Assembly (NCBI GenBank): GCA_964605735.1
Contig: CAZSDS010000001.1
Span: 340,813 to 404,812 of the forward strand
Length of the DNA: 64,000 bases
Source: an uncultured Candidatus Saccharibacteria bacterium
Lineage (GTDB): Bacteria; Patescibacteriota; Doudnabacteria; UBA920; O2-02-FULL-48-8
Direction: 5' to 3'
Shown: positions 6,747-42,426 of the stretch, one piece after another
Layout: each line of letters starts with the position of its first letter
Position numbering within the stretch: the stretch's first letter is position 1
Notes under the pieces: model-generated
The model's database searches: none
What the model was told of the DNA's origin: nothing
Seen by the model: the letters and a program-made list of their open reading frames with translations, nothing else
Made by a program: the position numbers and the translations under genes

Positions 6747-7801
6747 TTTTGTTTCCTAATTTTAATGTTGTTGAAGATGAAATCAATTTTTGACGCCAGT
6801 ATTTCTGTGCTTAACGGCGAAGGGTTGATTTTACTCATGTCTACCTTAAAAACTCCTTCAATATTTGCGTATGGGAGTGCAGGGCCAATAATACTCAGAA
6901 AATACTTGTCTAGGGGAATAATAATAACTTTTCTGTACATATCTTGTGCAAAATACCCTCCAGAAATGTAAAATTCAAGGCCCTCTTGACCATCAATGAT
7001 CGCCTTACTTACTCCGTGCTCAGGTGCAAAGGCTATAACACTGGTCGAGTTTTTTAGTTTTTCATACTCACTATTAACAGCAATACCAATAGCAGGATTA
7101 ATTCTATTATATCCTAGTGTTTCTATAGTAACATCAGAAACAAATGTTTCGCCCATAAAAGACCTTAGATTTATATGCTTCAAAAAATCCCTTCCCCCAT
7201 TCATCAGGTCTATTGCTTCGTTCAACCTAACATCTCCAGGATAGGTAATGGAAACACCCGATTCATCATGTACATAGGATATAGGTTCCAAAATCCTAGG
7301 AGTTTCTTTGAATGACTCCACTATCTTTCTAAAGTATGATATTGCTTCCTTTTCATGATTCTTATCATAGTATATTGTGAAGCTATACTCAGGTGTTTCT
7401 GGTATTGGGAAAATGTCGGAATTGCTCTTCAGAATGGCCATTTTCGTAGGAAAACCGGGATTTTCCTGACCATTAAGCAACATATCATTAGTGGTGAATT
7501 CCAAAGATTGGTTATTCAACCTGACTTTATGTTTACCAGTTTCTCTTAATTCACCGAGTCCTCCACGAGTAATGACAAACCTGAATTTTTTCTCCGAATC
7601 GGAAACATCCTCAAAATAGTACGGATCCTTTAGTGGGTAAACAGCCCAAGCGGCTGGATAGCTAAATTGAAATCCGAGTTTTTCATGGGAAAATGTCTTA
7701 TATTCTTCCCCTGTACTAAATTCATAATAAGCAATACCCACCGCTATTACCAGTATAACCAATATCAAGACCCAACTTTTTTTTCGGAGAGAACCAAACA
7801 T
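6743..7801 (-). CDS. hypothetical signal-anchored secreted protein
   Basis: 352 aa; N-terminal TM/signal anchor, AT-rich codon usage, GFQFSYPAAW motif shared with two other secreted proteins in the window. 4-nt overlaps with both neighbours. Confidence 0.55.
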   Translation of the reverse strand: MFGSLRKKSWVLILVILVIAVGIAYYEFSTGEEYKTFSHEKLGFQFSYPAAWAVYPLKDPYYFEDVSDSEKKFRFVITRGGLGELRETGKHKVRLNNQSLEFTTNDMLLNGQENPGFPTKMAILKSNSDIFPIPETPEYSFTIYYDKNHEKEAISYFRKIVESFKETPRILEPISYVHDESGVSITYPGDVRLNEAIDLMNGGRDFLKHINLRSFMGETFVSDVTIETLGYNRINPAIGIAVNSEYEKLKNSTSVIAFAPEHGVSKAIIDGQEGLEFYISGGYFAQDMYRKVIIIPLDKYFLSIIGPALPYANIEGVFKVDMSKINPSPLSTEILASKIDFIFNNIKIRKQK

Positions 7802-13708: not shown

Positions 13709-14731
13709 TTATTTTGTCTTTTTTTCGTGGTCCATGGGCAGACGCAACAGATCTGCGGCAGTCTCAGGCATGATCGTGTTCACGTAAACGTCAGACCCAA
13801 GTTCGAATCCGCCCCAAACATTAAGTCTTGGTAGGATCTCCAGATGCCAGTGGTAGCTGTTCAAATCATACCTGGTCATGACCCGGTGTGAAATCGGCAA
13901 AGTGTGGATGTAGTAATTATACGCCGGATTATTCAATTTGTAATATAGTTTTTGCAATGTCTGCTTTAAAACACGGCCCAGCGCCTTGCGCTCCTCATCC
14001 GTAACTTCAGTAAAATTGGCCATATGCCGCTTTGGAATGATGCGCAAAGCGTAGGGCACTCGAGCCGCAAACGGACAAAAAACCAAAAAGTCCTCATCAT
14101 CAATTACCACACGTTCTTTGTCAGACAACTCTTTCATGATCATTTGGCAGTACACACATGATCCATTCTGCTGATAGTACATATAACTGCCAGTCACTTC
14201 CTCATGCAGATGTTCCGGGACAAAAGGAGTGGCAAAAATCTGGGAATGGGGATGGAGTAAAGAAGCGCCGCCAGCTTTCCCGTGGTTTTGTAAAATATGG
14301 ATATAACGAACCTCCGGATGGCCGCTTAACTCTTTTATGCGTTGTTGATAGCTAAACAGGTTGGCATCCATGATATCATCGGACAAAAAGCCTGTCAGGA
14401 CATTGTGCTCACGCGTGATAATCACCTCATGGTCACCGATCCCCTCCCTGACATTGTAAAAATCCGTTTTCTTCCTTCCTCCGGCATGCCCCAAAGCCTC
14501 AAACTTATTTGGAATTACCCGGACCTTCCAGTCCTTCCCTTCAGGGAACGAGATAATTTCCAAATTGTAACCTTCATTACCTGGGCAAAATACGCACTTT
14601 GAATCACAGACAGGCAATCCTGCAGGATCTGGACTGGCCGGCTCTTGCCCGAAGTCCTCCGGTCGTTTGCTCCTGTTTGGGGCAAACAGAACCCAGTGAT
14701 GGGATACTATATCTTGTCTAAATTCGCTCAA
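13709..14731 (-). CDS. galT: galactose-1-phosphate uridylyltransferase family (HIT superfamily)
   Basis: 340 aa; N-terminal CxxC Zn site (CVFCPGNE) and catalytic HPHSQ (HxHxQ) motif. Confidence 0.8.
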   Translation of the reverse strand: MSEFRQDIVSHHWVLFAPNRSKRPEDFGQEPASPDPAGLPVCDSKCVFCPGNEGYNLEIISFPEGKDWKVRVIPNKFEALGHAGGRKKTDFYNVREGIGDHEVIITREHNVLTGFLSDDIMDANLFSYQQRIKELSGHPEVRYIHILQNHGKAGGASLLHPHSQIFATPFVPEHLHEEVTGSYMYYQQNGSCVYCQMIMKELSDKERVVIDDEDFLVFCPFAARVPYALRIIPKRHMANFTEVTDEERKALGRVLKQTLQKLYYKLNNPAYNYYIHTLPISHRVMTRYDLNSYHWHLEILPRLNVWGGFELGSDVYVNTIMPETAADLLRLPMDHEKKTK

Positions 14732-15257
14732 TCTTTTGTGTAAATTTGAATGTTTCCACTATCTTGCTGAACATCGAGCCCTTGCCTCGTAAAACCAACA
14801 ACCTGTCGCCCTCTTTGACCAAAATTATTTCTTCCGGCTGTTCTGTCCCCTGGGAAATCATTGTTGCGTTTAATCCGCCAACTCTGACCTGTCTTTCCTC
14901 TGTTCTGAACAAAGACTCCTTGACTGCACGCTCCTCAGATTCAGGATACAAACTGACCTTAAAGTATTCATTTACGTCCGTAGGACTGACAAAACTGATA
15001 GTATTCCCGGCTTCCGATTCCAGCCCCCAATTTTTTGGATATTTAAAGGAAAAACCTGACGGATGGTTAAACGAAGCCCAGGTGCGCGTACCCGTGGTTT
15101 CAGCCATCTGGTTCTGAAAATATATTTCGCTGATCTGAATCTGGGCGATCAAAGCCGAGCACACCAAAACAGCGATGGCGATCGTCCAGACCAACCAGCG
15201 ATTATCGTGAATTTTTATTTTATGCGGATGCCTCCACTTTGTTTTTCTTTTTGCCAT
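14718..15257 (-). CDS. hypothetical signal-anchored secreted protein
   Basis: 179 aa; basic N-terminus + TM, then GFSFKYPKNW motif resembling 6743..7801 and 26649..27086 products. Confidence 0.5.
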   Translation of the reverse strand: MAKRKTKWRHPHKIKIHDNRWLVWTIAIAVLVCSALIAQIQISEIYFQNQMAETTGTRTWASFNHPSGFSFKYPKNWGLESEAGNTISFVSPTDVNEYFKVSLYPESEERAVKESLFRTEERQVRVGGLNATMISQGTEQPEEIILVKEGDRLLVLRGKGSMFSKIVETFKFTQKIERI

Positions 15258-17023: not shown

Positions 17024-17788
17024 CTAAGTTGTTGTGATAATTTCACAACCGGCCTTAGTCACAAGTACAGTATGTTCAAAATGAGCCGAAGGAAGTCCGT
17101 CATATGTTCGGACAGTCCAGCCGTCCCGGTCAAAAATTATACGCCCTTTACCCATATTAACCATTGGTTCAATGGCAATAACCAATCCTTCTTGCACCTG
17201 CGGTCCTGTTCCGGGAATGCCAAAGCACGGGACATCTGGTTCTTCGTGGACGCTATTGCCAACGCCGTGCCCCACCAATTCTCTAACAACCTGAAATCCG
17301 TAATATTTCACGGTACTTTCAATGGCATGTCCGATGTTCCCTGTGAATGCCCCTGCTTTCACCACCTTCAGGGCGTTTTCCAGGCTTAACTTGGTCACAT
17401 CAATCAAATTCAAATATTTTTTGTCGACTTGCCCGACCGGCACTGTAATTGCCGCGTCAGTGTAAACCCCACGGTACTCCACGCCCAAATCCAAAGAAAC
17501 AATGTCGCCATTGCGTAAAATTTTGGTTTTTTTGGGTATGCCGTGAACTATTTCGCTGTTTACGGATACGCATAAACTTGCAGGGAAGGGGGTATCTTGC
17601 GGCGAAGATTTGTAGTTTTTAAAAGAGGGTGAAGCGCCTCGTCCTTTTATCTCCCGTTCAGCCAACTGGTCAAGGTCATAGGCGGAAATCCCCGGTTCAA
17701 CCCTGCTTGCGACCAGATTTAAAACTTCGGCCAGAATTTGTCCGCTTTTTTTCAGAGTTTCGAGTTGTTTGTCGTCCTTGATGATCAT
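17024..17788 (-). CDS. map: methionine aminopeptidase type I
   Basis: 254 aa pita-bread fold with the conserved metal-ligand D, D, H, E, E pattern. Confidence 0.95.
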   Translation of the reverse strand: MIIKDDKQLETLKKSGQILAEVLNLVASRVEPGISAYDLDQLAEREIKGRGASPSFKNYKSSPQDTPFPASLCVSVNSEIVHGIPKKTKILRNGDIVSLDLGVEYRGVYTDAAITVPVGQVDKKYLNLIDVTKLSLENALKVVKAGAFTGNIGHAIESTVKYYGFQVVRELVGHGVGNSVHEEPDVPCFGIPGTGPQVQEGLVIAIEPMVNMGKGRIIFDRDGWTVRTYDGLPSAHFEHTVLVTKAGCEIITTT

Positions 17789-18347
17789 TGATAAATTTCT
17801 GGATATCAGCGGCTACTGCATTGATACTGCGATGGCCGTCCACTGACCTGAGCTTCCCCTGTGATTTAAAGTAATTTAAAGTTTTCGCTACCTGCAACCT
17901 ATACATATTAATCCTATTTTCGACATATTTCCAGTCCTGGTCGTCGCGCATCCGCTTAAGAGATCTTTTTTTGACTTCAGAGGCGGGAAGGCTGATGCCA
18001 ATAACCAGATAGTCGCGGTCCCGCTGTTTGAGCAGTTTTGTCAGAAGCTGGGCTTCAGGCTTCAGCCGCGGATTGCCTATGAACAGCAAATCTTCATTTC
18101 TTCGTGCGGCCGCAAGCTGTTTTGTGATGAACTCCTTCATCAGTTTAACCGGAGCGGCTTGGCCTTTGCTGAATGTCCTGCGCAAAAGTTCGCCAACGGC
18201 GTTTTTTTGTTTGGCCATCTTCCGCCAGTGCTTTCCTGACTCAACAGGACGCATCTTGTATTTTTTTCTCAGTATGAGAGCTTGCGTGTCTTTCCCGGCC
18301 GCCGGCGCTCCCAACAGTATCACATCAAATCCTAACTTGGTGGCCAT
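17697..18347 (-). CDS. divergent adenylate-kinase-family paralog (P-loop GAPAAGKDT)
   Basis: 216 aa collinear with adenylate kinases (P-loop, NMP-binding and C-terminal helix regions) but with GKDT instead of GKGT and a K/R/S-rich C-terminal tail overlapping map by about 90 nt. Confidence 0.6.
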   Translation of the reverse strand: MATKLGFDVILLGAPAAGKDTQALILRKKYKMRPVESGKHWRKMAKQKNAVGELLRRTFSKGQAAPVKLMKEFITKQLAAARRNEDLLFIGNPRLKPEAQLLTKLLKQRDRDYLVIGISLPASEVKKRSLKRMRDDQDWKYVENRINMYRLQVAKTLNYFKSQGKLRSVDGHRSINAVAADIQKFINDHQGRQTTRNSEKKRTNSGRSFKSGRKQG

Positions 18348-18912
18348 GGTCGAGTTTCTTTAAGATGTCTGCGTGCACTTTTTCTATGCTTTGATCGCCG
18401 TTAATGCGAATCAGGCAGTGCTGTCGGTCAAAATAGTCAAGCAGCGGGTACGTCTTTTCATCATACTCCTTGAAACGAATGTCTATCACTTCCGGGTTGT
18501 CATCTGCGCGCGAATCAGCCCTTTTCAAAAGCCTTTGCAAAACATGGGATTTAGGCACATCAATGTAAATTGCTTTAACCCGGTCAACCTTGTACTTTGA
18601 GATGCCTTCGTCCAAAATTTTTATCTGATGGATATCCCTTGGGAATCCGTCCAGAACCAAACCCTCCGCTTTAGGCAAGCTTTTTAGCTTATCGTGGAAA
18701 ATTTTTCTGATCCAATCATCCGGGATAATATGGCCTTTATCTATAAATTTTTTAATGTCTTTGGCTCGCTCATCTTTTGCCTTGGAAACTTCCCGCAGGG
18801 TTTGCCCCAAACTTAAGTAATTATAGTTTAATATCGGAGCAAGCAATTTCCCCTGCGTGCCCTTTCCGGAACCTGGCGGACCTATCAAAATAAGAAAGTT
18901 TTTTATTTTCAT
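18325..18912 (-). CDS. adk: adenylate kinase (short type, no LID insertion)
   Basis: GPPGSGKGTQ P-loop, LDGFPR motif. ATG at 18910-18912 chosen; the upstream in-frame TTG at 18942 lacks an SD. Confidence 0.85.
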   Translation of the reverse strand: MKIKNFLILIGPPGSGKGTQGKLLAPILNYNYLSLGQTLREVSKAKDERAKDIKKFIDKGHIIPDDWIRKIFHDKLKSLPKAEGLVLDGFPRDIHQIKILDEGISKYKVDRVKAIYIDVPKSHVLQRLLKRADSRADDNPEVIDIRFKEYDEKTYPLLDYFDRQHCLIRINGDQSIEKVHADILKKLDHGHQVRI

Positions 18913-18949
18913 CTTCTTTATTATAACAGCTTTCACCGGCAATAAAAAT

Positions 18950-18987: not shown

Positions 18988-20286
18988 TTAAAATTCCTCG
19001 TAATCTCGCATGACCATTTGCGCCTGGGTTTGTTTGATGACCTCAATCACCACAGAAACCACAATCAGCAAACTGGTTCCGCCCAAAGTCAGAGCCTGCG
19101 TTTTGGTGAAATACTGGACGATGTAAGGGAGGACGGCAACTAACCCCAAGAATACGGCGCCAGCCAATGTGATTCGATTCAGAACTTTGTACAGGAACTC
19201 TGCGGTCTGACGGCCTGGGCGCAAACCTGGCACAAATCCGCCCTGCTTTTGCACATTATCCGCAATCTCATCAGGGTTGAAGACAATTGCAGTGTAGAAG
19301 TATGTGAAAGCGACCACCAAAATGAAGTACATGATGCCGTAGTAAGTCTGGTTCTGGAAGAAGACGTTTATGTCCTGAGCGGCATTCGCAATCCATGGAG
19401 TCTTGGCTTGTGAGAAAAAATTTGCGATCAATCCAGGGAAAAGCAAAATGGAAATTGCAAAGATGATTGGAATAACGCCGGCCTGGTTAATGCGCAATGG
19501 TAAGTGAGTGTTCACACCTCCATACATTTTGTTGCCGCGCACTCGTTTGGCGTATGACACTGGAATATTGCGCTGGGCTTCCGTAATCAGGACAATGCCG
19601 GCAATCACCAGCAGGGACGCAATCAGGAAGCCAATTACCATACCAAGGCTCTGGCCGGCAATCTGCCCGGAGGCATCCGTTATGCTGGTCCAGATCTGCT
19701 GGCCGTACTGAGGCAGCTGCGCCACAATACCTGCAAAAATTATCAATGAAATTCCGTTGCCGAGTTTGTATTCTGTAATCAATTCACCAATCCACATCAG
19801 GAGCATGGTGCCAGCGGTGACTGACAGCAATGTCACGAACCACTGGAAAGGCGTGAAATCAAGGACAATGCCTGACCCAGAAGTTCTGGAAAGCAGAATG
19901 ATTGTTCCGTAAGCCTGAATTGCAGCCAAAGGCACAGTCAGGACGCGCATGTACTGGTTGATTTTAGCCCTGCCAGCTTCCCCACCCTCTTTCTGCAGTT
20001 CACCCAATTTAGGAATGATGATTGTTAAAAGCTGCATGATAATGGACGCGGTAATATAAGGACCAACACCAAGCATTGCTACGGAAAAATTGCTCAACGC
20101 GCCACCAGAAAAAATGTTATACAACCCAAAAAGCTGGTTGCTGTTTAACAAAGCCTGCAAGTTTCCAACTTCCAGGCCTGGGATAGGCACGTGAGCCAGA
20201 ATTCTGGTGACAACCAGAAGCATGGCAACAATAAAAATCTTATTGCGAAGCTCCTTTACTTTCCAGATTTGAGCTAAACGTGACAT
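18988..20286 (-). CDS. secY: preprotein translocase subunit SecY
   Basis: 432 aa with 10 TM segments and typical SecY conserved loops. Confidence 0.95.
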   Translation of the reverse strand: MSRLAQIWKVKELRNKIFIVAMLLVVTRILAHVPIPGLEVGNLQALLNSNQLFGLYNIFSGGALSNFSVAMLGVGPYITASIIMQLLTIIIPKLGELQKEGGEAGRAKINQYMRVLTVPLAAIQAYGTIILLSRTSGSGIVLDFTPFQWFVTLLSVTAGTMLLMWIGELITEYKLGNGISLIIFAGIVAQLPQYGQQIWTSITDASGQIAGQSLGMVIGFLIASLLVIAGIVLITEAQRNIPVSYAKRVRGNKMYGGVNTHLPLRINQAGVIPIIFAISILLFPGLIANFFSQAKTPWIANAAQDINVFFQNQTYYGIMYFILVVAFTYFYTAIVFNPDEIADNVQKQGGFVPGLRPGRQTAEFLYKVLNRITLAGAVFLGLVAVLPYIVQYFTKTQALTLGGTSLLIVVSVVIEVIKQTQAQMVMRDYEEF

Positions 20287-22875: not shown

Positions 22876-23433
22876 TTAATTCTTCTTAAGTAACGCTTCT
22901 TGGAACGGGAATCCCATTGATCTGAGCAAGCTTTCGGCCTGCTTGTCATCACGGGCGGAAGTCTGAATGTTGATCTCGAATCCGAATGTGTGCTCTAAGT
23001 GCTCTCGAGATGTTTCCGGGAAAACAATCTGCTCTTTTATGCCAAGGCTGTAATTGCCGTGTCCGTCAAAACTCTTGGGGCTGATACCTTTGAAGTCTCG
23101 GACACGCGGCAATGCGACTCTAATCAGCTTTTCGAGGAAGTCATACATGCGCTGGCCGCGGAGCGTAACCATCAGACCGACCACCTGGTTTTCTCTGATC
23201 TTAAAGCCCGCAATGGACTTCTTGGCCAGGGTCTTAACAGGGGCTTGTCCGGTGATTTTCCGCAAATCTTCGATGATTGCATCCAACAGTTTCTGGTCCT
23301 TCAGGGTTCTGCCGACACCGACGTTCACCACAACTTTCTCAACTTTCGGTATAGCCATCTTATTCTTGATGCCCAGATTCTTGCTCAGTTCCTGGACAGT
23401 CTTTTCTTTGTAATGGGTTCTTAAGCTTGTCAT
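22876..23433 (-). CDS. rplE: 50S ribosomal protein L5
   Basis: 185 aa L5 family; operon position. Confidence 0.93.
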
Positions 23434-23438
23434 ATAGT

Positions 23439-23765
23439 TTACTTGATGGTTTTACCACACTTCTTGCATTTGCGGAATTTGCCGGAGTCAGTGACTTCGT
23501 GGCCTACGCGGGTAGGCTTGCCGCAATTAGGGCAGATCAGGACAATTTTTGATGCCGGCATGCCGGCTGGCACTTCCATGCGCTGGCCCTTTTCGCCCTG
23601 CTTCTTTGGTTTGGAGTATCGGACGTGCAAATTCAAGCCTTCGGCTACAACTCGGTTGGATTCAGGAAGAACCTGCAATACTTTGCCTGTCTTTCCTTTG
23701 TCCTTTCCGGCCAAAACCTTGACCTCGTCGCCCTTCTTGATATTCATGCTAAATCTGGTCTTCAT
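23439..23765 (-). CDS. rplX: 50S ribosomal protein L24 with C-terminal CxxC...CxxC zinc-ribbon-like segment
   Basis: KOW motif (GDEVKVLAGKDKGKTGKV) then CPNCGKPTRVGHEVTDSGKFRKCKKCG. Confidence 0.9.
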   Translation of the reverse strand: MKTRFSMNIKKGDEVKVLAGKDKGKTGKVLQVLPESNRVVAEGLNLHVRYSKPKKQGEKGQRMEVPAGMPASKIVLICPNCGKPTRVGHEVTDSGKFRKCKKCGKTIK

Positions 23766-23766
23766 A

Positions 23767-24138
23767 TTAGATCACTTCCTCAGCCAATGAAATAATTTTA
23801 GTGTAACCAAGCTCACGCAATTCTCGCGGAATTGGTCCGAAAATGCGGGTGCCGCGTGGTTCCGGAGAGTCTTTGGTCACCAATACTGCTGCGTTGTCGT
23901 CAAATCTGATATATGATCCGTCTTGTCGCCTGGTTTCTTTGCGGGTGCGGACAATAACTGCATAAACCTTATCACCCTTCTTCACCTGGCCTTTTGGGCT
24001 GGCTACTTTCACAGAAGCGACAATAACATCACCAATTCTTGCAAATCGTCTCTTGTTTTTTCCGTTCACGCTGAAAGAGGCAATTTCCTTTGCTCCGGTG
24101 TTGTCTGCAACTTTTAGACGGCTTCTTACTTGGATCAT
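23767..24138 (-). CDS. rplN: 50S ribosomal protein L14
   Basis: 123 aa L14 family ([17 protein letters not shown]). Confidence 0.95.
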
Positions 24139-24163
24139 ATACTTATAAACTTACAAAAATTAA

Positions 24164-24430
24164 TTAAACTTTGCGGGTAACTACCCAATTCTTGGTCTTG
24201 CTGATCGGCTTGGATTGCATAATCTCAACCTTGTCGCCAATCTGGTATGTAGCGCCAGCAGTGTCTGCGGCGTACTTTTTGGAGGTGCGATAGCGCTTCT
24301 GGTACTTAGGGTGGACCTTAATGGTGTCCACTTTGACGATAACTGTGTTCGTCATCTTGTTGGAAGCTACCTGCCCTACCAGCGTCAGGCCTGATTTTTG
24401 CACAGCCTTTTCTTCAATTTTTTCTGGCAT
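24164..24430 (-). CDS. rpsQ: 30S ribosomal protein S17
   Basis: 88 aa OB-fold S17 family. Confidence 0.92.
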   Translation of the reverse strand: MPEKIEEKAVQKSGLTLVGQVASNKMTNTVIVKVDTIKVHPKYQKRYRTSKKYAADTAGATYQIGDKVEIMQSKPISKTKNWVVTRKV

Positions 24431-24431
24431 A

Positions 24432-24614
24432 TTATTTGGCGTTAAGGACGGTTAAGATTCTTGCAATGTCTTTCTTGATGGAAGTCAAAACGTGGTTGTT
24501 CTTCACTTCTCGCGAATGGATCTTGAACTGCATGTCTCGGACTTGTTCTCTCAGGGCAGCCAATGTCTTCTTCATCTCAGCTTCACTCATTTTCTTGATT
24601 TCTTCGATCTTCAT
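24432..24614 (-). CDS. rpmC: 50S ribosomal protein L29
   Basis: 60 aa helical L29 family; operon position between rplP and rpsQ. Confidence 0.9.
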   Translation of the reverse strand: MKIEEIKKMSEAEMKKTLAALREQVRDMQFKIHSREVKNNHVLTSIKKDIARILTVLNAK

Positions 24615-24615
24615 A

Positions 24616-25029
24616 TTAGTTCTGCTCCTTTGAGATAAAGCGTGACTTTACTGGAAGTTTATGTGAGGCCAATCGCATTGCTTCCTGAGCCTGTGCGTAA
24701 GTAACGCCATCCATTTCAAACATGATGCGTCCCTTCTGCACTACGGCCACGAAGTGGTCTACTGCACCCTTACCGCTACCCATTGGGGATTCGTTGCCGT
24801 GGGAGGTTACGGATTTGTCAGGGAAAATTCTGATCCAAACTTTGCCGCCGCGCTGGATATAGCGGGTCATGGCGCGTCGGGCGGCTTCAATCTGGCGGCT
24901 GGTTACCCAGCTGTTTTCCATTGCCTTTAAAGCGAATGATCCGAAGGCAATTGAGTTGCCGGCCATTGCTTTCCCCTTGGACCTTCCTCGGTGGTGCTTG
25001 CGATGTTTAACTTTCTTTGGAATCAACAT
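24616..25029 (-). CDS. rplP: 50S ribosomal protein L16
   Basis: 137 aa L16/L10e family. Confidence 0.95.
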
Positions 25030-25048
25030 AAACGTCTAATTAACTTAA

Positions 25049-25717
25049 TTAAATCTTGAGCTTTTGCTTGGTACCCTCAAACACTTCACCTTTATTGATC
25101 CAGACCTTGATGCCGATTGTACCATAAGTGGTAAAGGCAGTGGTTCTGGCAAAATCAATGTTGGCGCGCAAAGTATGGAGAGGGAGCTTGCCTTTGAACA
25201 ATCTTTCTGTTCTTGCAATTTCAGCGCCGCCGAGTCTGCCTGCCATTTCAATCTTCACGCCTACTGCACCGGCTTCCATGACTTTTTCGATCGCCTGCTT
25301 CATGGCGCGGCGGAAAGCAATACGCTTTTCAATCTGGTCTGCAATATCCTGGGCAATCACCTGGGCCTGGAGGCTGACATCTTTTACGTCTTCGATGTTC
25401 AGTTTGATGTCGCGCTTGCTTTTCTTGTCAAAGCCGAGATGCTTGAAAATCTTTTTCTTCAACTCTTCAATGCCATTGCCGCCTTTTCCAATGATCATGC
25501 CTGGTTTGGTGGTCTTGATGTTGATCACAGTACTGTTGGCGGTTCGCTCAATGTCGATTCTAACCAACCCTGCTTTCTTCAATTCGTTCATCAAGAAAGC
25601 GCGGATGGTTGCGTCTTCCTGGAGGTTCTGAGCGTAACCAGTTTTAACCAGCCACTTGGATTTCCAAGTGTCAGTGATTGTCAATCTTAAGCTGTTGGCA
25701 TTGATCTTCTGACCCAT
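25049..25717 (-). CDS. rpsC: 30S ribosomal protein S3
   Basis: 222 aa with KH domain and S3 C-terminal domain. Confidence 0.95.
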
Positions 25718-25741
25718 ATATGTTCCGTTAAATTAAGTGTC

Positions 25742-26320
25742 TTATTCTCCGCTCTTGCGGTTAAACAAACGTCTCTTTAATGTGCTTGTCTGCTTCTTGA
25801 TCTTTTCTTCAGATTTAGGAGCAACTCTTGGCGCAGCATCGTTCTTTATGTCCACTTTGCCTTCCTGAACTTCGTTCTTGGCTGCCTTGGCTTCTGCTTT
25901 GGACTTATCCTGTTCTGCGGTTCGGGCAAAGATGGTTCGGGTTTTCTTTGACTTTGTCTTAGGCTTTGACTCAAGGATGATGTTAATGTGGCTCATGCGC
26001 TTGCGGATGATGAAACCCTGGCCTTGCGCGCGTGGGAACATTCTTTTCATCACTGGTCCGCCGTCTATAGTCACAGCCTTGACCACCAAGTCTTCCTTTT
26101 TCATATCATGATTATGGACTGCGTTTGCGATTGCTGAATTCAATACTTTGGTCATTGGCAAAGCTGCTGACTTGGAGCTGAATCGAAGCTGCTCTAATGC
26201 AACATCAACACGCGCCTTTCTGATCAGGTCTGCTACCAGTCTCAGCTTTCTTGGAGATACGTGAATGTATCTGGCGAATGCTTTGACTTCTATAGGTTTT
26301 TGGGATGCTTGCTTTGCCAT
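25742..26320 (-). CDS. rplV: 50S ribosomal protein L22 with ~75-aa lysine-rich C-terminal extension
   Basis: L22 core (aa 1-115) followed by low-complexity K/E/A-rich tail. Confidence 0.9.
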   Translation of the reverse strand: MAKQASQKPIEVKAFARYIHVSPRKLRLVADLIRKARVDVALEQLRFSSKSAALPMTKVLNSAIANAVHNHDMKKEDLVVKAVTIDGGPVMKRMFPRAQGQGFIIRKRMSHINIILESKPKTKSKKTRTIFARTAEQDKSKAEAKAAKNEVQEGKVDIKNDAAPRVAPKSEEKIKKQTSTLKRRLFNRKSGE

Positions 26321-26344
26321 ACTAGTAGTTAATCAAAATTACTG

Positions 26345-26647
26345 TTATTTAGCTGATGCCGGAGCGGCTGGCTTGGCTTCTTCTTTGGCCATCTTGCCGC
26401 CGTGGCGGATGAACTTGCGGGTTGGCGCAAATTCGCCGAGCTTGTGCCCAACCATGTTTTCTGAAACCAATACGGTTACAAAAGTTCTGCCATTGTGGAC
26501 ATCAAACTTCATGCCTACCATTTCAGGAAAAATCGTTGAGTCTCGAGACCAAGTCTTGATGACACTGCCGCTATTTGGTTTAGTCTTCTGGACTTTTTCC
26601 CAGAGCTTTGGGTCAACAAATGGACCCTTTTTAAGTGATCGTGACAT
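26345..26647 (-). CDS. rpsS: 30S ribosomal protein S19
   Basis: 100 aa S19 family ([12 protein letters not shown]...). Confidence 0.95.
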
Positions 26648-26648
26648 A

Positions 26649-27086
26649 TTATTTAGTAAACCTGAAGGTTGTTAAGATATTTTCTATTATTGCTGCTGAG
26701 GAATCTTGAGACTCAAAGGTGTATACAGAAGAATCGCTGCCCAAACTGTACATTATTTCGTTCTCCGTATCATACACTTTCACCTCATTACCGTTTATCG
26801 TAGTTGTTCTGGTTGGTGGTAACCCAGCAGTTTCTGGTCCAGAAACTATCAACGAAATTACGGTATTCCCATTTCTGTCTATGAAAGAAAATGTAGACGA
26901 TGCATCTGTTCTCACTTCCAAGTCGGTTGGATGTTGGAGTTTAAACCCATACTGGTCGTTAACATAGGTAATCACTTCAGATGTGGTCTGCTGAGTACCA
27001 GAAGTTTCCTGATTCGAAGCAGATTGTTGAGTACAAGCCGCAGCTACTAGAGAAATGCCAGCAATTAATAGTAGTATCTTTTTCAT
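26649..27086 (-). CDS. hypothetical lipoprotein inserted between rplB and rpsS
   Basis: [18 protein letters not shown] lipobox signal; ATG 27084-27086 lies 1 nt after the rplB stop and the gene ends 1 nt before rpsS. S/T-rich mature region with [11 protein letters not shown] motif. Confidence 0.7.
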
Positions 27087-27087
27087 A

Positions 27088-27927
27088 TTACTTGCTTCGT
27101 CTCTTAACAATAAACTTTGCTGAACTCTTCTTTGGGTTGCGGGTTCTTACGCCTAACGCATGCTTGCCCCATGGAGTCTTCGGATACTTCAAACCGATTG
27201 GGTTATGTCCTTCACCACCGCCGTGCGGGTGATCCACCGGGTTCATGGCCTTACCTCTGACGGTTGGGCGAATACCCATGTGGCGGACTCGTCCAGCTTT
27301 TCCGATTCTGACATACATCCAGTCAACGTTTGATACTTGTCCGATGGTGGCGTAAGACTTTACCGGTACTCTGCGGATTTCGCCGGAAGGCATTTTCAGA
27401 AGCGCATAATCACCTTCCATGGATTGGATGATCGCGTAAGTTCCAGCTGATCTGGCAAACTGACCGCCTTTTCCGCCACCCAGGATTTCAATGTCATGGA
27501 TGTTGGTGCCGACTGGGATGTTTCTGATCATCATGCGGTTGCCTGGCTTGATTTCAGTTCGCTCTGCGGTCATTACCACTTGTCCGATTTTCATGCCATC
27601 CGGAGCCAAGATAAATCTTTTTTCTCCGTCTCTGTATGCAAGCAATGAAATGAAAGCGCTTCGTCCCGGATCATACTGCAAGGTCTGCACTTTGGCAGGG
27701 ATATTCATCTTGTCGAGTCTGCTGAAATCAATTGCTCGGAGTTTCTTGCGGTGGCCGCCGCCGATGTGGCGGACAGTAATTTTACCAGAGTGGTTTCGTC
27801 CGGCTGATTTCTTCTTTGACCTGATCAGCGCACGAGGAACTTTCACATCCGCCTTCAATCCTGAATAGTCGGTGACGGAGTGGATTCTGCGCCCTGCTGA
27901 AGTTGGTTTGTAAATCTTAATCGCCAT
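27088..27927 (-). CDS. rplB: 50S ribosomal protein L2
   Basis: 279 aa L2 family incl. conserved GGGH region. Confidence 0.95.
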   Translation of the reverse strand: MAIKIYKPTSAGRRIHSVTDYSGLKADVKVPRALIRSKKKSAGRNHSGKITVRHIGGGHRKKLRAIDFSRLDKMNIPAKVQTLQYDPGRSAFISLLAYRDGEKRFILAPDGMKIGQVVMTAERTEIKPGNRMMIRNIPVGTNIHDIEILGGGKGGQFARSAGTYAIIQSMEGDYALLKMPSGEIRRVPVKSYATIGQVSNVDWMYVRIGKAGRVRHMGIRPTVRGKAMNPVDHPHGGGEGHNPIGLKYPKTPWGKHALGVRTRNPKKSSAKFIVKRRSK

Positions 27928-27928
27928 A

Positions 27929-28408
27929 TTATACTCCTTCGGCCAAACCGGAGATGGTCTCTCCTGCCTTTAAGGTCACAATTGCTTTCTTCCAGTCTGA
28001 AGTTCTGCCTGATGTGCGGCCGTATGCTCTGAACTTGCCTTTGGTGTTTACGATATTCACATCAGTGACATGAACATCATAAACGGATTCAATAGCCTTC
28101 CTGATTTCAATCTTATTGGCCTTGCGGTCAACTACAAATACGTATCTGCCTTGGGTGGAGAGCTGGTTGGATTTCTCTGACAAATGGTACTGCTTGAGCA
28201 CTCGGTGGGCGCGGCCGGTATCATCCTTAAGCTGGGCAGGAGCGCTCTCTGTCTTCTTGCCTTCTTTGGCCATGTTCAAGACATCGTCGTTCTTTCCACT
28301 TGGGGTGGATCCGCCCTTGGCGGACTTTGCGACTTTCTTTGTGGTCTTGTTCTTGTTAGCACCAGCCTCTGGCTGGGCTTTGCCGGTGATTTTGTCGAGT
28401 AATCCCAT
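27929..28408 (-). CDS. rplW: 50S ribosomal protein L23 with ~60-aa K/A-rich N-terminal extension (alternative start possible near 28273)
   Basis: L23 core (RAHRVLKQYHLSEK...KKAIVTLK) preceded by low-complexity lysine/alanine-rich region. Confidence 0.85.
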   Translation of the reverse strand: MGLLDKITGKAQPEAGANKNKTTKKVAKSAKGGSTPSGKNDDVLNMAKEGKKTESAPAQLKDDTGRAHRVLKQYHLSEKSNQLSTQGRYVFVVDRKANKIEIRKAIESVYDVHVTDVNIVNTKGKFRAYGRTSGRTSDWKKAIVTLKAGETISGLAEGV

Positions 28409-28409
28409 A

Positions 28410-29051
28410 TTATTTCTTTAAATAAGTCTTTTCAATTACTTCCAACGCATCTTTTGTAACAATGACGTCGTTCTTAAGCAGGTCAATTACGTTCAATCGG
28501 TTGGCTGGCAATACGGTAACGTTCGGCAGGTTCTTGGCCACTCTTTCAATGCCGGCGTCGTGCTTGGCCAAAATCAAAACATAATTTTTGTCCAAACCTG
28601 ACTTGCCTGCAAAAGCTTTCAACTTGCTGGCCAAATCCTTAGTCTTTTCAACGCCTTCAATCTTATCCAGTACGGCAACTTTCTTGTTGTTCAGCTTGTC
28701 AGTCAAAACAGTAAACAAAGCCTTGCGGAATGCGCTGCGGTTCATCTTGATGGACCAGTTCCTGGTGTTGCGCGGACCGAAAGTGACTCCGCCGCCCTTC
28801 CACAATGGAGAACGGATGGAACCTGCTCGGGCGCGGCCTGTGCCTTTTTGCTTCCAAGGCTTTTTGCCGGAACCGGACACTTCACCGCGGTACTTGGTGT
28901 GGGCAATTGAACTGCGAGCGTTACTGAGCTGTGTGCGAACTGCCTGGTGCACCAAATTTGCGTCGATTTCTTCCACTCCGAAAATTCTGGAATTCAAATC
29001 CACTTCTGAAACTTTGTCGCCCGCTGTATTGTATACTACTGCCTTTGCCAT
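28410..29051 (-). CDS. rplD: 50S ribosomal protein L4
   Basis: 213 aa L4/L1e family. Confidence 0.93.
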   Translation of the reverse strand: MAKAVVYNTAGDKVSEVDLNSRIFGVEEIDANLVHQAVRTQLSNARSSIAHTKYRGEVSGSGKKPWKQKGTGRARAGSIRSPLWKGGGVTFGPRNTRNWSIKMNRSAFRKALFTVLTDKLNNKKVAVLDKIEGVEKTKDLASKLKAFAGKSGLDKNYVLILAKHDAGIERVAKNLPNVTVLPANRLNVIDLLKNDVIVTKDALEVIEKTYLKK

Positions 29052-29052
29052 A

Positions 29053-29721
29053 TTATTCTTTGATTATGTTCGGAAAATCCGTAAACACTCCGTCCACGCC
29101 CATTCCCTTGGCAATCAGGTAATCATGGATGCTGTTAACAGTCCAAGCGAAAACCTTTACACCCAGGCGCCTCATGGATTTCATGTGCACCGGAGTGACC
29201 AAAGTATGAACCGGATGGATTGAGTAAAGATCTAACTGTTTGGCTACTGCCATCATGAATGGCCACATGTAGCCCATTTTTGGACCGATTATGAATCCCA
29301 GGGGGATTTTTCCGTCCAAAGCCCTAACCTTCTTCAAAACAACCGGGTTGTTTGAGGAGATTAAAACCTTGTGCGGAAAACTTTTCACGGCATCCAAAAC
29401 TGCTTGTTCCATGCCATCGACTTTCAGCTCCAAATTCAAAGGCAATTTTGCTGCCTGCAAAAATTCGTTCAGTTCTGGAATTTCACGGCCTTCTTTTTTG
29501 GAGATGTTCTTGACCTCCTCCAAAGTCAGGTCCGAAATTTTTCTGCGGTCGTCGTGCGTTCGGATTAGTGTGGGGTCGTGGATTATTACCACTTTACCAT
29601 CCTTGGTCAGGCGCAAATCCGCCTCAACCATCTGAACGCCCGCGTCGATTCCTGCTTGTAAAGAACCTATCGTGTTTTCCGGGGCCAAACCCGCGGCCCC
29701 GCGATGCCCGATAATCAGCAT
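29053..29721 (-). CDS. glycerophosphodiester phosphodiesterase family protein inserted between rplC and rplD
   Basis: Starts MLIIGHRGAAGLAPENT (GDPD HR(G) motif); catalytic E/D/H pattern. ATG 29719-29721 is 1 nt after the rplC stop and the gene ends 1 nt before rplD. Confidence 0.8.
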   Translation of the reverse strand: MLIIGHRGAAGLAPENTIGSLQAGIDAGVQMVEADLRLTKDGKVVIIHDPTLIRTHDDRRKISDLTLEEVKNISKKEGREIPELNEFLQAAKLPLNLELKVDGMEQAVLDAVKSFPHKVLISSNNPVVLKKVRALDGKIPLGFIIGPKMGYMWPFMMAVAKQLDLYSIHPVHTLVTPVHMKSMRRLGVKVFAWTVNSIHDYLIAKGMGVDGVFTDFPNIIKE

Positions 29722-29722
29722 A

Positions 29723-30322
29723 TTAAACAGTCTGGATTTTGACCATTGCACCCGGTGCGCCAGGGATCGCTCCTTTAATCGCAATCAAATTCTTGGCTGT
29801 ATCTATATCAACAACTTCCAGATTCTTTACGGTTCTTGAACCGGCCATGTGGCCTGCCATGCGCAAACCTTTTCTGACGTGCTGTGGGAAGCGCATACCA
29901 ATGGAACCTACGGCGCGAGGGTGGTCGTGGCCGTGTGAAGCCGGCTGTCCGCCGAATCCATATCTCTTGATAGGCCCAGCAAAACCGCGCCCCTTCATCT
30001 GGGAAGTAACTTTCACAACATCGCCAACAGCAAAGGTGTCAACTTTGATTTCCTGTCCTTTTTCAAATTTGGCGTCAGCTGGAATTCTGAATTCAACAAG
30101 TCTGGCGAAATTCTTCATGCCCTTCAAGTGGCCTGCAGTAGCCTTGTTCTGGCTCTTCTTTTTGCCAAAGCCAACCTGCACTGCTGTGTACTTGTCCTTA
30201 TCAGCGGTTCTGACCTGGGTAACCTTAACTGGAGATGCCTTCAAAATCGTAACAGGAACGACTTTGCCGTCCTTGTTGAAGATTTGAGACATATGAAGTT
30301 TTTCTGCGACGATGAATTTCAT
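29723..30322 (-). CDS. rplC: 50S ribosomal protein L3
   Basis: Starts MKFIVAEKLHMSQIF (ATG 30320-30322 verified); L3 family. Confidence 0.93.
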   Translation of the reverse strand: MKFIVAEKLHMSQIFNKDGKVVPVTILKASPVKVTQVRTADKDKYTAVQVGFGKKKSQNKATAGHLKGMKNFARLVEFRIPADAKFEKGQEIKVDTFAVGDVVKVTSQMKGRGFAGPIKRYGFGGQPASHGHDHPRAVGSIGMRFPQHVRKGLRMAGHMAGSRTVKNLEVVDIDTAKNLIAIKGAIPGAPGAMVKIQTV

Positions 30323-30582
30323 AAAAGCTTGTTGCATTTATTTGGATAAACAAAAACCGATCAGATCCTTCTCTCTTTTCTCCGTATCCGGAGCAAGAGC
30401 AGAACCTAAGCGGTTCATGTAAACGAGGATGCATTTGTTTCCTGCTGACTAGGCAGAAGATATTCTTTTTTGATCTCCTGAGGTTATATGTTGCTTTTTG
30501 CCGGTTTCCGGCGTGGCCGGACCAGGCGCAGTCTGCGTATTAACCTGTGGAATTTAACAAACGGAACCCAAAAACCCAAACT

Positions 30583-30903
30583 TTACATTTTAATCTCTAC
30601 ATCAACACCTGCCGGGAGGTTCAAATTTGAGAGGGCATCAATGGTCTTAGGTGTCGGGGTTGAGATATCAATCAATCTTTTGTGAACGCGCATTTCGAAT
30701 TGTTCGCGGGCATTCTTGTGGACGAAGGTCGAGCGAAGCACCGTATATTTGGTCTTTTCAGTCGGCAAAGGCACAGGACCAATGACTCCAGCCCCGGTTC
30801 GCTTTGCAGTGTCTACAATCTGTCGAGCGGACTGGTCAATGAGCTTATGGTCATAGGCTCTGATTTTGATTCTTATTCTGGCTGTATCGGTTGCCTGCGG
30901 CAT
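30583..30903 (-). CDS. rpsJ: 30S ribosomal protein S10
   Basis: 106 aa collinear with bacterial S10 ([16 protein letters not shown]...). Confidence 0.95.
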
Positions 30904-30955: not shown

Positions 30956-30984
30956 ATTCTAAACGATTTTGCTTAAAAAGTCAA
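30956..30984 (-). promoter_or_regulatory. candidate sigma70-type promoter of the S10 operon (-35 TTGACT, 17-nt spacer, -10 TAGAAT)
   Basis: Read on the minus strand: TTGACT ttttaagcaaaatcgtt TAGAAT, about 45 nt upstream of the rpsJ ATG and downstream of the tuf terminator. Confidence 0.5.
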
Positions 30985-31061: not shown

Positions 31062-31103
31062 TTTTCAAGAAAATCCCTCCCTTTCGGGAGAAAGGGAGGG
31101 AAC
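31062..31103 (-). terminator. rho-independent terminator downstream of tuf
   Basis: 11-bp perfect stem tccctcccttt/aaagggaggga with loop cgggag, followed on the minus strand by TTTTCTT. Confidence 0.75.
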
Positions 31104-39945: not shown

Positions 39946-42426
39946 CTATAATTCGATATTCCAATTTACGTTTCTGTCCAGCAGTTGCAACATCTGGCCT
40001 TGAGGGATCGGCGGGCTGAACAAATAGCCTTGTGCTTTGTCACACTCCCTATCTTTAAGGAAACGAAGCTGGTCATAGCGCTCGACTCCCTCTGCGGTCA
40101 CCAACACCCCCAAACTGCGCGAGAGATTGATCACGGCATTGGCAATTGCCGTGTCTTTTTCTTTCATGGGAATCCCCTTCATGAACGAATGCGAAACTTT
40201 CAAACTGTGAACCGGAAACTTCTTCACGTAATCAAGTGACGAATGGCCAGTGGTGAAATCGTCGATCGCAAATTTTATCCCATCTTTCCTGAGCTGAACC
40301 ATCATGTTGTAAAGGTTGTGTGAATTCTCCACCAAAACGCTTTCTGTAAGCTCAAATTCCAACCGCTTTGGGTCAAACTCACATTCCGCCAAAATCTTTC
40401 TGATGTTTCTGATCAAATGCCTCTGCCGTAACTGTCTTGCCGACAAATTGACTGACAAATCTAGCATATGGCCGTACCTTTCCCAGGTTTTTACATCCAG
40501 GCATGCCTGGCGCAATACCCACTCGCCGATCGGCTGAATCAGTCCGGTGGTCTCGGCTATTGGGATAAACTCATCCGGGAAAGTCAGGCCAAGCTCCGGG
40601 TGCATCCATCTGATCAAGGCTTCCACCTGCACAATCCTTCCGGTTGGAATGTCGATTTGCGGAATGTAATAAACAAGGAATTCATTGTTCTCCAGTGCCT
40701 TTCGCAAAGTGTTTTCCATGGCCAATTGCTGGAAAGTGGTCGCGTTCATGGATGGGTTGTAGTACTGGAAGTTGTTGCGGCCCATTTCTTTGGCGCGGTA
40801 CAAAGCTGAATCAGCGTTCTTCATAAGCGAAGACACATCGGTCCCGTCATATGGATAAACTGAAATCCCAATGCTTGGCGTGATATAAAGTTCGTGGGTA
40901 TCAAGCCTGAACGCGGGCTTAAGCGCTTCCAGGATTCTGGAGCATGCCTGGCCTATCTCTTCTTCGCGGACAATGCCGCCCAGGATAATGCCGTATTCAT
41001 CTCCGCCAAGACGCGCCAGCATATCCGTATCATCCAAACAGCTGGCCAGCCTTAAACTGACCTCCTGAATCAGCCGGTCGCCAATGGAATGCCCCAGCGA
41101 TTCATTAATCATCTTAAACCGGTCAAGGTCAATTATCATTGTGCCGAACAACTTATCCTGTTTTTCCTCCAGCAGATTCCCTAATCTTTCTGTAAAATAA
41201 TTGCGGTTCGGCAAATCAGTCAGGCTGTCATGATAATGGCTGTATTGGGCTCTTTCTTCTGCAGCTTTCCTTTCAGTTATGTCACGGAAATTGACGACAA
41301 TTGCTTTGACATTGGCATCATGCAAAAGATTTGTGCTGGAAGTTTCCACCCACCTCCAAACACCGTCCGCGTGCCTGATTCGCATTTCATGGACTGTAGT
41401 ATCGCCTGGAGTAGCCAGCAGTTTTGCGAACTCCTCCATGACGTAGTTAATGTCAGCCGGATGGACATAATCAAATCCGTTTCGGGTGCCGAATTCAACG
41501 GTGTCATAACCCAGCACCCGCGTAATGGACGGGCTGGAATAGATAACCGTTCCTTTTGCGTCAATCAGGGCAATAACATCAGAGCTTTTTTCAATCAAAG
41601 CCCGGAATCTGGCTTCATGGCTTTTCAGCTTTTCCTCGGATTTTTTTTCTTCTGTAATATCCCTGATTTCCAAAACCGCACCAACCAGCTCGCCTTCATT
41701 TACTATCGGGCTGGACGAGCACAAACTATAAAAAAACTCGCCATTTTTTCTGATGTAAACACTCTCATGGTCTCTAACCGGTTTCATTTCAGCCAACGCC
41801 CTGTCAACCTTGCATTCATCCTGGGGAAAAGGACTGCCGTCAGGCTTTGTATGGTGAATCACCTCATGCAGACTCTTGCCTCTGACACTATCCAATGAAT
41901 GCCCAATCATTTTCTCCGCCGCCGGATTCATAAACGTGACGCAATTTTTGGCATCCATCAAAAACAAGCCGACAGTGGTGTTGTCAGTTATGCTTTTAAT
42001 TAAATAATTTTGGTGTTCCAGGGAAGAAATTTCCCTGACAGTGTCAGTAACGTCAATGCAGGAACCAATATACCCCACGAACTCTCCTCCTGGCAGGTAA
42101 AGTGGCGAACCGTTTTCCATAAACCAGCGGTAGCGTCCATCATGGCGGCGCAGGCGGTACTTCAACCCAAATTCTTTCCTTCGATCAAAATTTTCCGTAT
42201 AAACCTTCAAACACCTTTCCACGTCTTCCGGATACATGCTGTCCACCCATCCGTAGCCAAGTTCCTGCTCCATTTCCCTGCCGGTGAACTCAAGCCAGCG
42301 CTTGTTGAAGAACGTGCAATTTTTGCTTGTGTCAGACATCCAGACCAAAACCGGAGCACTGTCAGCCATCGCCTGGAAAAGCGAGAGCGCATCAGATAAT
42401 TTTTGTTTCTGCAGTTCTTTATTCAT
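39946..42426 (-). CDS. PAS-PAS-PAS-GGDEF-EAL signalling protein (c-di-GMP cyclase/phosphodiesterase)
   Basis: 826 aa; three PAS repeats, GGDEF domain (RLGGDEYG variant), EAL domain (EFELTE, DDFTTG, sensor-type motifs). Its stop codon directly abuts the stop of the convergent 38404 gene. Confidence 0.9.
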   Translation of the reverse strand: MNKELQKQKLSDALSLFQAMADSAPVLVWMSDTSKNCTFFNKRWLEFTGREMEQELGYGWVDSMYPEDVERCLKVYTENFDRRKEFGLKYRLRRHDGRYRWFMENGSPLYLPGGEFVGYIGSCIDVTDTVREISSLEHQNYLIKSITDNTTVGLFLMDAKNCVTFMNPAAEKMIGHSLDSVRGKSLHEVIHHTKPDGSPFPQDECKVDRALAEMKPVRDHESVYIRKNGEFFYSLCSSSPIVNEGELVGAVLEIRDITEEKKSEEKLKSHEARFRALIEKSSDVIALIDAKGTVIYSSPSITRVLGYDTVEFGTRNGFDYVHPADINYVMEEFAKLLATPGDTTVHEMRIRHADGVWRWVETSSTNLLHDANVKAIVVNFRDITERKAAEERAQYSHYHDSLTDLPNRNYFTERLGNLLEEKQDKLFGTMIIDLDRFKMINESLGHSIGDRLIQEVSLRLASCLDDTDMLARLGGDEYGIILGGIVREEEIGQACSRILEALKPAFRLDTHELYITPSIGISVYPYDGTDVSSLMKNADSALYRAKEMGRNNFQYYNPSMNATTFQQLAMENTLRKALENNEFLVYYIPQIDIPTGRIVQVEALIRWMHPELGLTFPDEFIPIAETTGLIQPIGEWVLRQACLDVKTWERYGHMLDLSVNLSARQLRQRHLIRNIRKILAECEFDPKRLEFELTESVLVENSHNLYNMMVQLRKDGIKFAIDDFTTGHSSLDYVKKFPVHSLKVSHSFMKGIPMKEKDTAIANAVINLSRSLGVLVTAEGVERYDQLRFLKDRECDKAQGYLFSPPIPQGQMLQLLDRNVNWNIEL

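Follow-up and report, generated by a model that had tools for sequence, protein, structure and literature searches.

The rplW-rplB-rpsS-rplV string at the core of the S10 ribosomal protein operon is among the most invariant gene orders in bacteria, which raises the question of how a gene for an exported protein can come to lie in the middle of it, and of what its product might do. Such a gene is met in an uncultured Candidatus Saccharibacteria bacterium assigned by GTDB to the Doudnabacteria (assembly GCA_964605735.1, contig CAZSDS010000001.1, positions 340,813 to 404,812 of the forward strand), of which these 64,000 nucleotides, hereafter the window, were analysed. An open reading frame (ORF) coding there for a small putative lipoprotein separates rplB from rpsS. 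That the gene is real, that its product carries a lipoprotein-type signal and a PsbP-like fold, and that the slot it occupies is a recurrent one are, taken jointly, claims that we regard as very probable.

A lipoprotein gene in the S10 core

The ORF begins with an ATG at 27086-27084 and ends with a stop codon at 26651-26649 on the minus strand (Table 1). The rplB stop at 27090-27088 stands 1 nt before this ATG, and the same order recurs in front of rpsS, in such a way that both junctions read TAATATG and the gene is flanked by a 7-nt direct repeat. An alternative TTG start at 27110, giving 153 aa, was rejected because the homologues all begin with MKK. The coordinates, 145-aa length, lipobox and 1-nt gaps on both sides that a first-pass annotation had read from the DNA proved all correct when the ORF was read directly, and Pfam confirms the two ribosomal protein genes between which that annotation had seen a lipoprotein-type gene inserted.

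The N-terminus of the protein fits PROSITE rule PS51257, according to which the lipobox [LIVMFWSTAG](2)-[LIVMFYSTAGCQ]-[AGS]-C, with its cysteine at position 15-35, has to be preceded by a lysine or arginine within the first seven residues and, after it, by a hydrophobic h-region. In the window protein, a basic n-region M-K-K (K2 and K3) is followed by the hydrophobic core and the lipobox V-A-A-A-C18, which is devoid of the classical leucine at -3. An NCBIfam scan returned only sub-threshold matches, all of them over lipoprotein signal regions. The mature domain had also been described as rich in serine (S) and threonine (T); the two residues do make up 28% of the mature chain, but they are concentrated in the linker following the signal peptide, a part that is modelled with low confidence.

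A variable slot between rplB and rpsS

Among species-representative genomes, the best matches of the window's L2 come from Candidatus Doudnabacteria metagenome-assembled genomes, some of them mislabelled, with at most 78% identity. The window protein is encoded on a contig of 797 kb, and the genome is one of the Candidate Phyla Radiation (CPR; Patescibacteria). The rplB-rpsS gap was measured in 80 related loci, 65 of which are Doudnabacteria loci with both genes (L-numbers designate related loci or contigs, and P-numbers family proteins). An insertion of 470-1100 bp is found in nine of these 65 loci (L002, L003, L004, L008, L010, L027, L051, L059, and L064), each time as a single ORF on the operon strand, usually 1-3 nt away from the flanking genes, with a lipoprotein signal of the form MKK/MRK...(A/S/V)A(A/S)C-N(K/Q)Q. 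On metagenome contigs, the lipobox proteins P0008, P0010, P0011, P0013, and P0017 are likewise encoded directly upstream of rpsS, and a metagenome scan found the same slot occupied by lipobox genes in L092-L096 and L100.

The 15 positional homologues all keep both the signal MKK...AAAC(N/T)(K/Q)Q and the lipobox cysteine, and their median identity amounts to 56% in the signal peptide versus 25% in the mature part. Two PsbP-like domains follow the signal in L002, L004, and L027, and a Germane-like region is combined with a PsbP-like domain in L064 and P0017. In L003 and L059, the hidden Markov model (HMM) of the family described below matches the signal peptide and linker only, the mature domains being unrelated. 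Besides, two or three tandem lipoprotein genes occupy the slot in L093 (952-2064) and L103 which, together with the two-domain fusions, indicates local duplication.

Within the window's clade (the window and its 14 closest relatives), the gene is present in 7 of 15 genomes, the window included, and missing in the other eight. An ORF missing from close relatives had been named in the first-pass annotation as evidence against its claim; such an absence is therefore real for part of the clade and contradicted by the other part, and the gene is to be seen as accessory, repeatedly lost or gained, and not as an assembly error. The relatives without it mostly read rplB-TAA-t-ATG-rpsS. In L013, no ORF is left, and a 27-nt rplB-rpsS spacer ends with cttttagattcactaaataat, identical at 23/24 positions to the 3' end of the L004 gene (FKFTK-stop), as seen in the alignment of the deletion scar (cttttagattcactaaataatATG in L013 against cttttaaattcactaaataatATG in L004). 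In L090, a 45-nt duplicate of the rpsS 5' end lies upstream of the lipoprotein gene (29-73 and 926-970). The L013 remnant and the L090 duplicate are footprints of deletion and of insertion or recombination, respectively, and show the slot to be dynamic. Taken together, these data establish the rplB-rpsS junction in Doudnabacteria as a variable slot whose lipoprotein genes have been lost or gained repeatedly.

Two further observations concern this junction. Small GIY-YIG (homing-endonuclease-like) ORFs lie between rplB and the lipoprotein gene in L086 (1709-1996) and also in L100, and two others flank pgk beside a transmembrane-type paralogue in L084 (196-459 and 2078-2425); they could drive the mobility of the inserts. 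In many Doudnabacteria without the gene, rplB and rpsS are separated by spacers of 70-120 nt with long palindromic or repeat-like sequence. Those of L021, L029, L034, and L035 have a hairpin in common, with compensatory changes (5 pairs) in its GC-rich apical stem, and spacers of similar length are found in L014, L017, L020, L028, L032, L033, L041, L046, L048, L049, L052, L057, L058, and L063. The window does not have this hairpin, which may act in regulation or processing or else represent a small mobile repeat.

Protein family, predicted fold and paralogues

A word-index homologue search with the window protein retrieved only itself, an exact-sequence look-up of contigs returned nothing, and an exhaustive phmmer search of 1.8 billion representatives gave weak matches only (E 1e-5 to 1e-3), except for those to P0081 and P0082, which low complexity or repeats explain. 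The positional homologues are more informative: L004, L008, and L010 pass the Pfam family PsbP_2 (PF18933; gathering threshold of 27 bits) with 49.6, 35.4, and 33.2 bits, respectively, and a profile of the positional homologues retrieved 75 proteins. A leave-one-out family HMM, made of 73 of these 75 and excluding the window protein, recovers the latter with 35.3 bits (E 6e-13) over residues 2-145. By this measure, the mature domain is a short and divergent member of a family related to PsbP_2 and spread across the CPR.

The alignment-based AlphaFold2 model (mean pLDDT of 83, pLDDT being the predicted local distance difference test) comprises a signal helix, a disordered tether, ten strands and a C-terminal helix; pLDDT falls below 50 at residues 20-26 and stays low until about residue 30. 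The predicted fold is an antiparallel beta-sheet sandwich with a C-terminal helix, significantly similar to PsbP and Mog1, as expected for the Mog1p/PsbP-like fold. The structural matches of the model are BT_1490 (3hlz; score of 12.1), Tsi3 (10.9), cyanobacterial PsbP (10.0), Mog1 (9.0), TplEi (8.9), Apa (8.6), LpqN (7.6), and DcrB (6.7). Foldseek ranked PsbP structures at the top, and in a profile search of PDB sequences sll1418 (CyanoP) and PsbP matched weakly but over their full length. The columns conserved in the family form an aromatic and hydrophobic core (Y41, W38, I137, L138, T140, F141, and F143), with a Y..N..YGF.F.YP hairpin and a C-terminal ILSTFKF(T) helix as motifs, and with no polar catalytic set. 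Such conservation of a core favours a structural role in binding over an enzymatic one.

Most family members, across CPR lineages, have an N-terminal transmembrane anchor, and a lipobox is found in only about a dozen. Lipobox members adjoin rplB or rpsS in 7 of 13 informative metagenome loci, and transmembrane-anchored members do so in 0 of 55; the slot is taken by the lipobox branch of the family only, never by the membrane-anchored paralogues. As for other contexts, the transmembrane-type P0009 (L084) lies between pgk and eno, the likewise anchored P0025 in unrelated surroundings, and the lipobox member P0031, which has a different signal peptide, upstream of ATP synthase genes. The window itself codes for two paralogues, at 14718-15257 and 6743-7801 (both on the minus strand), which are PsbP_2-like with N-terminal membrane anchors and which account for the GF.F.YP-like motif that had been noticed at first sight in two other proteins of the window. 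The former is placed between ruvX and a galT-like gene, and the latter between a pfkB kinase gene and a 2-hydroxyacid dehydrogenase gene, overlapping or abutting both. Both are embedded in co-directional strings of housekeeping genes, inside which the PsbP_2-like family seems prone to sit.

Transcription, coupling and codon usage

The transcription unit that holds the lipoprotein gene likely starts at the promoter-like site found upstream of rpsJ (Table 1). From there to rplE, terminator-like sites on the minus strand are no commoner than in shuffled sequence, and a consensus scan revealed no convincing promoter or terminator between the lipoprotein gene and its same-strand neighbours. Rfam detected no RNA element in the operon. 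Another promoter-like site, at 26675-26648, might have served rpsS from within the operon; it was rejected because its -10 element directly adjoins the ATG of rpsS, and a transcript made from it could not include that start codon.

The TAAT ATG grammar found at the start of the lipoprotein gene also precedes rplD, rplW, rplB, rpsS, rpmC, rpsQ, and rplX, and TAATATG junctions recur at eight cistron boundaries of the S10 operon (22876-30903, minus strand). No clear Shine-Dalgarno sequence precedes rpsS or the lipoprotein gene, while rplB, rpmC, and rplX have one; several cistrons of the operon, rpsS among them, are devoid of a recognisable one. Given the common strand, the lack of a promoter or terminator break and the shared junction grammar, co-transcription with the ribosomal protein genes, which the first-pass annotation had proposed, is strongly implied by the sequence, and translational coupling by termination and reinitiation would be the natural reading. 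In several relatives, gaps of 20-100 nt separate rplB from rpsS or from the lipoprotein gene.

The further proposal that the lipoprotein is translated stoichiometrically with the ribosomal proteins finds no support in codon usage. The codon adaptation index (CAI) of its gene, taken relative to the ribosomal protein genes, is 0.485, the lowest of 37 window genes, versus 0.66-0.82 for the ribosomal protein genes and 0.74-0.78 for EF-Tu and EF-G. Its GC content at third codon positions (GC3), 0.342, is the second-lowest of the 37, after that of the paralogue at 6743-7801 (0.331), and its overall GC content is 0.39 versus about 0.48-0.50 in the flanks. The low CAI and GC3 fit weak selection for translation efficiency, fast evolution or foreign origin, and the CAI gap to the ribosomal protein genes would speak against an equal translation efficiency.

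Proposed role and alternative explanations

We propose that the protein is exported by the Sec pathway through a signal peptide of the signal peptidase II type and would be lipidated at Cys18. The tether of about 19 residues, rich in serine, threonine and glutamine, would then keep a minimal Mog1/PsbP domain on the outside of the cytoplasmic membrane of a monoderm cell, where this domain may bind partner proteins or lipids, without catalysis, by analogy with DcrB, LpqN, CyanoP, Tsi3, and the adaptors of type VI secretion systems (T6SS). Presumably transcribed within the S10 operon, the gene would have the synthesis of its product tied to growth, and its translation would start where the rplB ribosomes terminate (TAA-T-ATG), with the same hand-over to rpsS, itself without a Shine-Dalgarno sequence. 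In the course of evolution, the slot genes have conserved the signal peptide while their mature parts evolve fast, duplicate, fuse, or are replaced by unrelated domains; gene loss would presumably proceed by recombination between the two TAATATG repeats, leading to a clean excision that restores the TAA-t-ATG junction. As a whole, the reading of a real accessory gene for a small extracytoplasmic lipoprotein with a binding or scaffold role is reasonably probable, an estimate which blends that for the identity of the gene with that for its function. The functional part on its own, namely that the domain binds or scaffolds a membrane or envelope partner and is not an enzyme, is tentative and a little short of an even chance.

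Several points weigh against this proposal. At E < 1e-10 and apart from repeat-protein noise, the window protein has no close homologue but itself, and its own match to PsbP_2 (18.8 bits, E 0.0018, residues 5-63) stays below the gathering threshold. It is the shortest and most divergent protein of the set, about 40 residues below the typical member length, it lacks the conserved tryptophan of the family, and HP replaces YP in its hairpin motif. Having the poorest codon usage in the window fits weak selection or low translation, and not an abundant, important protein. No gene for Lgt or LspA was found within the 64-kb window. Finally, the neighbour-joining tree of L2, S19, and L22, in which occupied slots are patchy, with isolated occurrences in three other Doudnabacteria clades, is crude, and losses cannot be separated in it from gains.

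A broader view takes the slot itself as a dedicated, recombination-mobile expression site. The conserved signal and lipobox would serve as an adaptor behind which mature domains (single or double PsbP-like, Germane-like plus PsbP-like, Ig-like, or unassigned) are duplicated, fused or swapped, and the cassette would spread and excise by means of the ribosomal flanks and the TAATATG repeats, possibly with the aid of GIY-YIG ORFs. Through coupling to essential ribosomal protein genes, a protein serving in interactions with the host or the envelope would be sure to be expressed constitutively and in step with growth. We consider this view rather doubtful. Another reading, in which the ORF is a hitch-hiker with little or no function of its own, is very unlikely. 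According to it, the frame has to stay open because rpsS and the downstream genes rely on ribosomes delivered through the ORF, and only precise deletions between the TAATATG repeats are tolerated. The lowest CAI of the window and a GC3 undercut by one paralogue alone, the short and divergent product, the lack of a Shine-Dalgarno sequence before rpsS and the clean TAAtATG of relatives without the gene are all in line with such a lock-in, but the maintenance of lipobox and signal peptide in all positional homologues and the confidently predicted fold point to selection on the protein, and the longer gaps seen in several relatives indicate that strict coupling is not obligatory in the phylum. An assembly or sequencing artefact, or a spurious ORF, the error that the first-pass annotation had asked to keep in mind, is effectively refuted: while the GC content departs from that of the flanks and the only database match above marginal is the protein itself, many independent assemblies have homologous lipoprotein genes at this very junction, the junctions are in register and the fold is predicted with confidence.

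Two other explanations differ from our proposal in the function ascribed to the protein. It might be an accessory of envelope biogenesis or lipid handling which, similarly to LpqN or DcrB, would aid transporters or lipoprotein and lipid trafficking; such a role would be fitting for a CPR cell that scavenges lipids, with a possible functional link to the GDPD-family gene located two junctions upstream. This remains improbable, as LpqN and DcrB are weaker structural matches than BT_1490, Tsi3, and PsbP, the GDPD protein has no signal peptide, and no transporter gene adjoins the lipoprotein gene. Moreover, a functional tie between the GDPD and lipoprotein genes was rejected because both occur independently across relatives, the former without the latter in L001, L006, L011, and L013, and the latter without the former in L027, L051, and L064. 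Alternatively, a protective inhibitor or immunity-type protein resembling Tsi3 or TplEi, which would neutralise a lytic enzyme from a host, a competitor or a phage, would account for the rapid divergence and the replacement of domains. The neighbours are nevertheless the ribosomal protein genes rplB and rpsS, with no effector or toxin gene adjoining; PADLOC gave no matches, identity to Tsi3 is about 10%, and the fold is generic, which makes this role highly improbable.

Features of the operon and its surroundings

The features on which the above description relies are collected in Table 1.

Table 1. Location of the lipoprotein gene, its parts and its surroundings in the window.
Feature	Coordinates	Strand	Basis or remark
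Lipoprotein gene, 145 aa and stop	26649..27086	-	ORF and translation; divergent short member of the CPR-wide PsbP_2-like family
Signal peptide and lipobox, residues 1-18 (Cys18 codon 27035-27033)	27033..27086	-	Read from sequence
Flexible tether rich in S/T/Q, residues 19-37	26976..27032	-	Composition and low pLDDT
Globular domain of predicted Mog1/PsbP fold, residues 38-145	26652..26975	-	Ten beta strands and C-terminal helix ending ILTTFRFTK
Junction 1: rplB stop TAA, T, lipoprotein ATG	27084..27090	-	
Junction 2: lipoprotein stop TAA, T, rpsS ATG (26647)	26645..26651	-	
rplV (L22)	25742-26320	-	Pfam
rpsS (S19), downstream neighbour	26345-26647	-	Pfam 1e-35
rplB (L2), upstream neighbour	27088-27927	-	Pfam 6e-47/6e-31
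rplW (L23)	27929-28408	-	Pfam
rplD	28410-29051	-	
GDPD-family gene	29053-29721	-	Pfam GDPD 5.6e-42
rplC	29723-30337	-	
rpsJ	30583-30903	-	
Best promoter-like site upstream of rpsJ	30956..30984	-	TTGACT-17-TAGAAT; consensus scan only
Strong terminator hairpin just upstream of the rpsJ promoter-like site	31074-31101		

Downstream of rplV, the operon continues with rpsC, rplP, rpmC, rpsQ, rplN, rplX, rplE, further ORFs, two adk genes and map. The two adk genes are tandem, overlapping adenylate kinase ORFs at 17697-18347 and 18325-18942 on the minus strand (Pfam ADK 2e-20 and 7e-36), placed between map and an ORF at 18988-20286 that is likely secY and was not scanned with Pfam. Two ribosomal proteins of the core string are extended: L23 has an N-terminal extension of about 69 residues, its Pfam domain covering residues 70-152 of 159, and L22 has a C-terminal extension of about 75 residues rich in lysine, alanine and glutamate, its Pfam domain covering residues 15-117 of 192.

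The GDPD gene codes for a cytoplasmic glycerophosphodiester phosphodiesterase and is inserted between rplC and rplD. Its true start is likely the ATG at 29721, 1 nt past the rplC stop, and its own stop lies 1 nt before rplD, both junctions sharing the coupling grammar of the lipoprotein gene. This insertion is found in 11 of the 15 genomes of the window's clade, the window counted, and is absent from all other Doudnabacteria loci. Elsewhere in the window, the product of an ORF at 39946-42426 (minus strand) is a PAS-PAS-GGDEF-EAL protein of 826 aa which, for a genome of about 0.8 Mb, is a large protein of cyclic-di-GMP signalling.

Comparison with known systems

The Pfam family PsbP_2 and the Mog1p/PsbP superfamily include the cyanobacterial lipoprotein CyanoP (sll1418; PDB 2lnj and 2xb3), in comparison with which the window protein scores below the Pfam cutoff and is shorter, its domain having about 108 residues. 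A role in photosystem II cannot apply to it because the organism is non-photosynthetic. DcrB (6e8a) and LpqN (6e5d) are small lipoproteins facing the extracytoplasmic space, as is proposed for the window protein, whose predicted fold is the same, and proteins of this type are thought to work with membrane complexes (PMC7716261). More generally, the literature describes the bacterial members of the Mog1p/PsbP family as diverse in function and as possible associates of membrane-anchored complexes (PMC7716261), and a part as T6SS adaptors has been proposed for PsbP/MOG1-like proteins (PMC3482391). Tsi3 (4luq) and TplEi (5h7y) are T6SS immunity proteins, whereas the window locus is without a cognate effector gene and the window protein shares about 10% identity with them; no T6SS context was seen around the window gene, and CPR bacteria are monoderm.

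In Gammaproteobacteria and Bacilli, the insertion events that were examined in detail mostly occur between operons (PMC8046335). We found no literature report of a lineage-specific, recurrent interruption of rplB-rpsS by genes for exported lipoproteins whose signal peptide is conserved and whose mature domains can be exchanged. Non-ribosomal cistrons in ribosomal protein operons are familiar and the fold is common, this recurrent interruption being the unreported part. The protein fold being ordinary and the function unassigned, the value of the locus lies in its genomic arrangement and evolutionary dynamics. The repeated interruption of the S10 core shows how far a grammar of stop, 1 nt and start, without Shine-Dalgarno sequences, can go in taking in foreign cistrons, and it offers a natural system in which to ask whether an inserted ORF can be locked in once it is translationally coupled to essential genes. 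Besides, little is known of the molecules by which uncultivated CPR bacteria contact their hosts, and the lipoprotein is one candidate for a surface protein that they express constitutively.

A secreted protein expressed at ribosomal-protein levels had been regarded at the outset as unusual, a view that, as a matter of principle, known cases do not sustain: as far as is known, secY, adk, and map belong to all spc operons, and there are familiar examples of abundant lipoproteins, such as E. coli Lpp. The genes secY, adk, map, infA, and rpoA of the spc and alpha operons are likewise co-directional, co-transcribed non-ribosomal genes, SecY being a membrane protein, and adk and map are also present in the window. 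However, those genes are near-universal and lie at the distal end of the operon, whereas the lipoprotein gene of the window sits in the S10 core and is lineage-restricted, accessory and fast-evolving.
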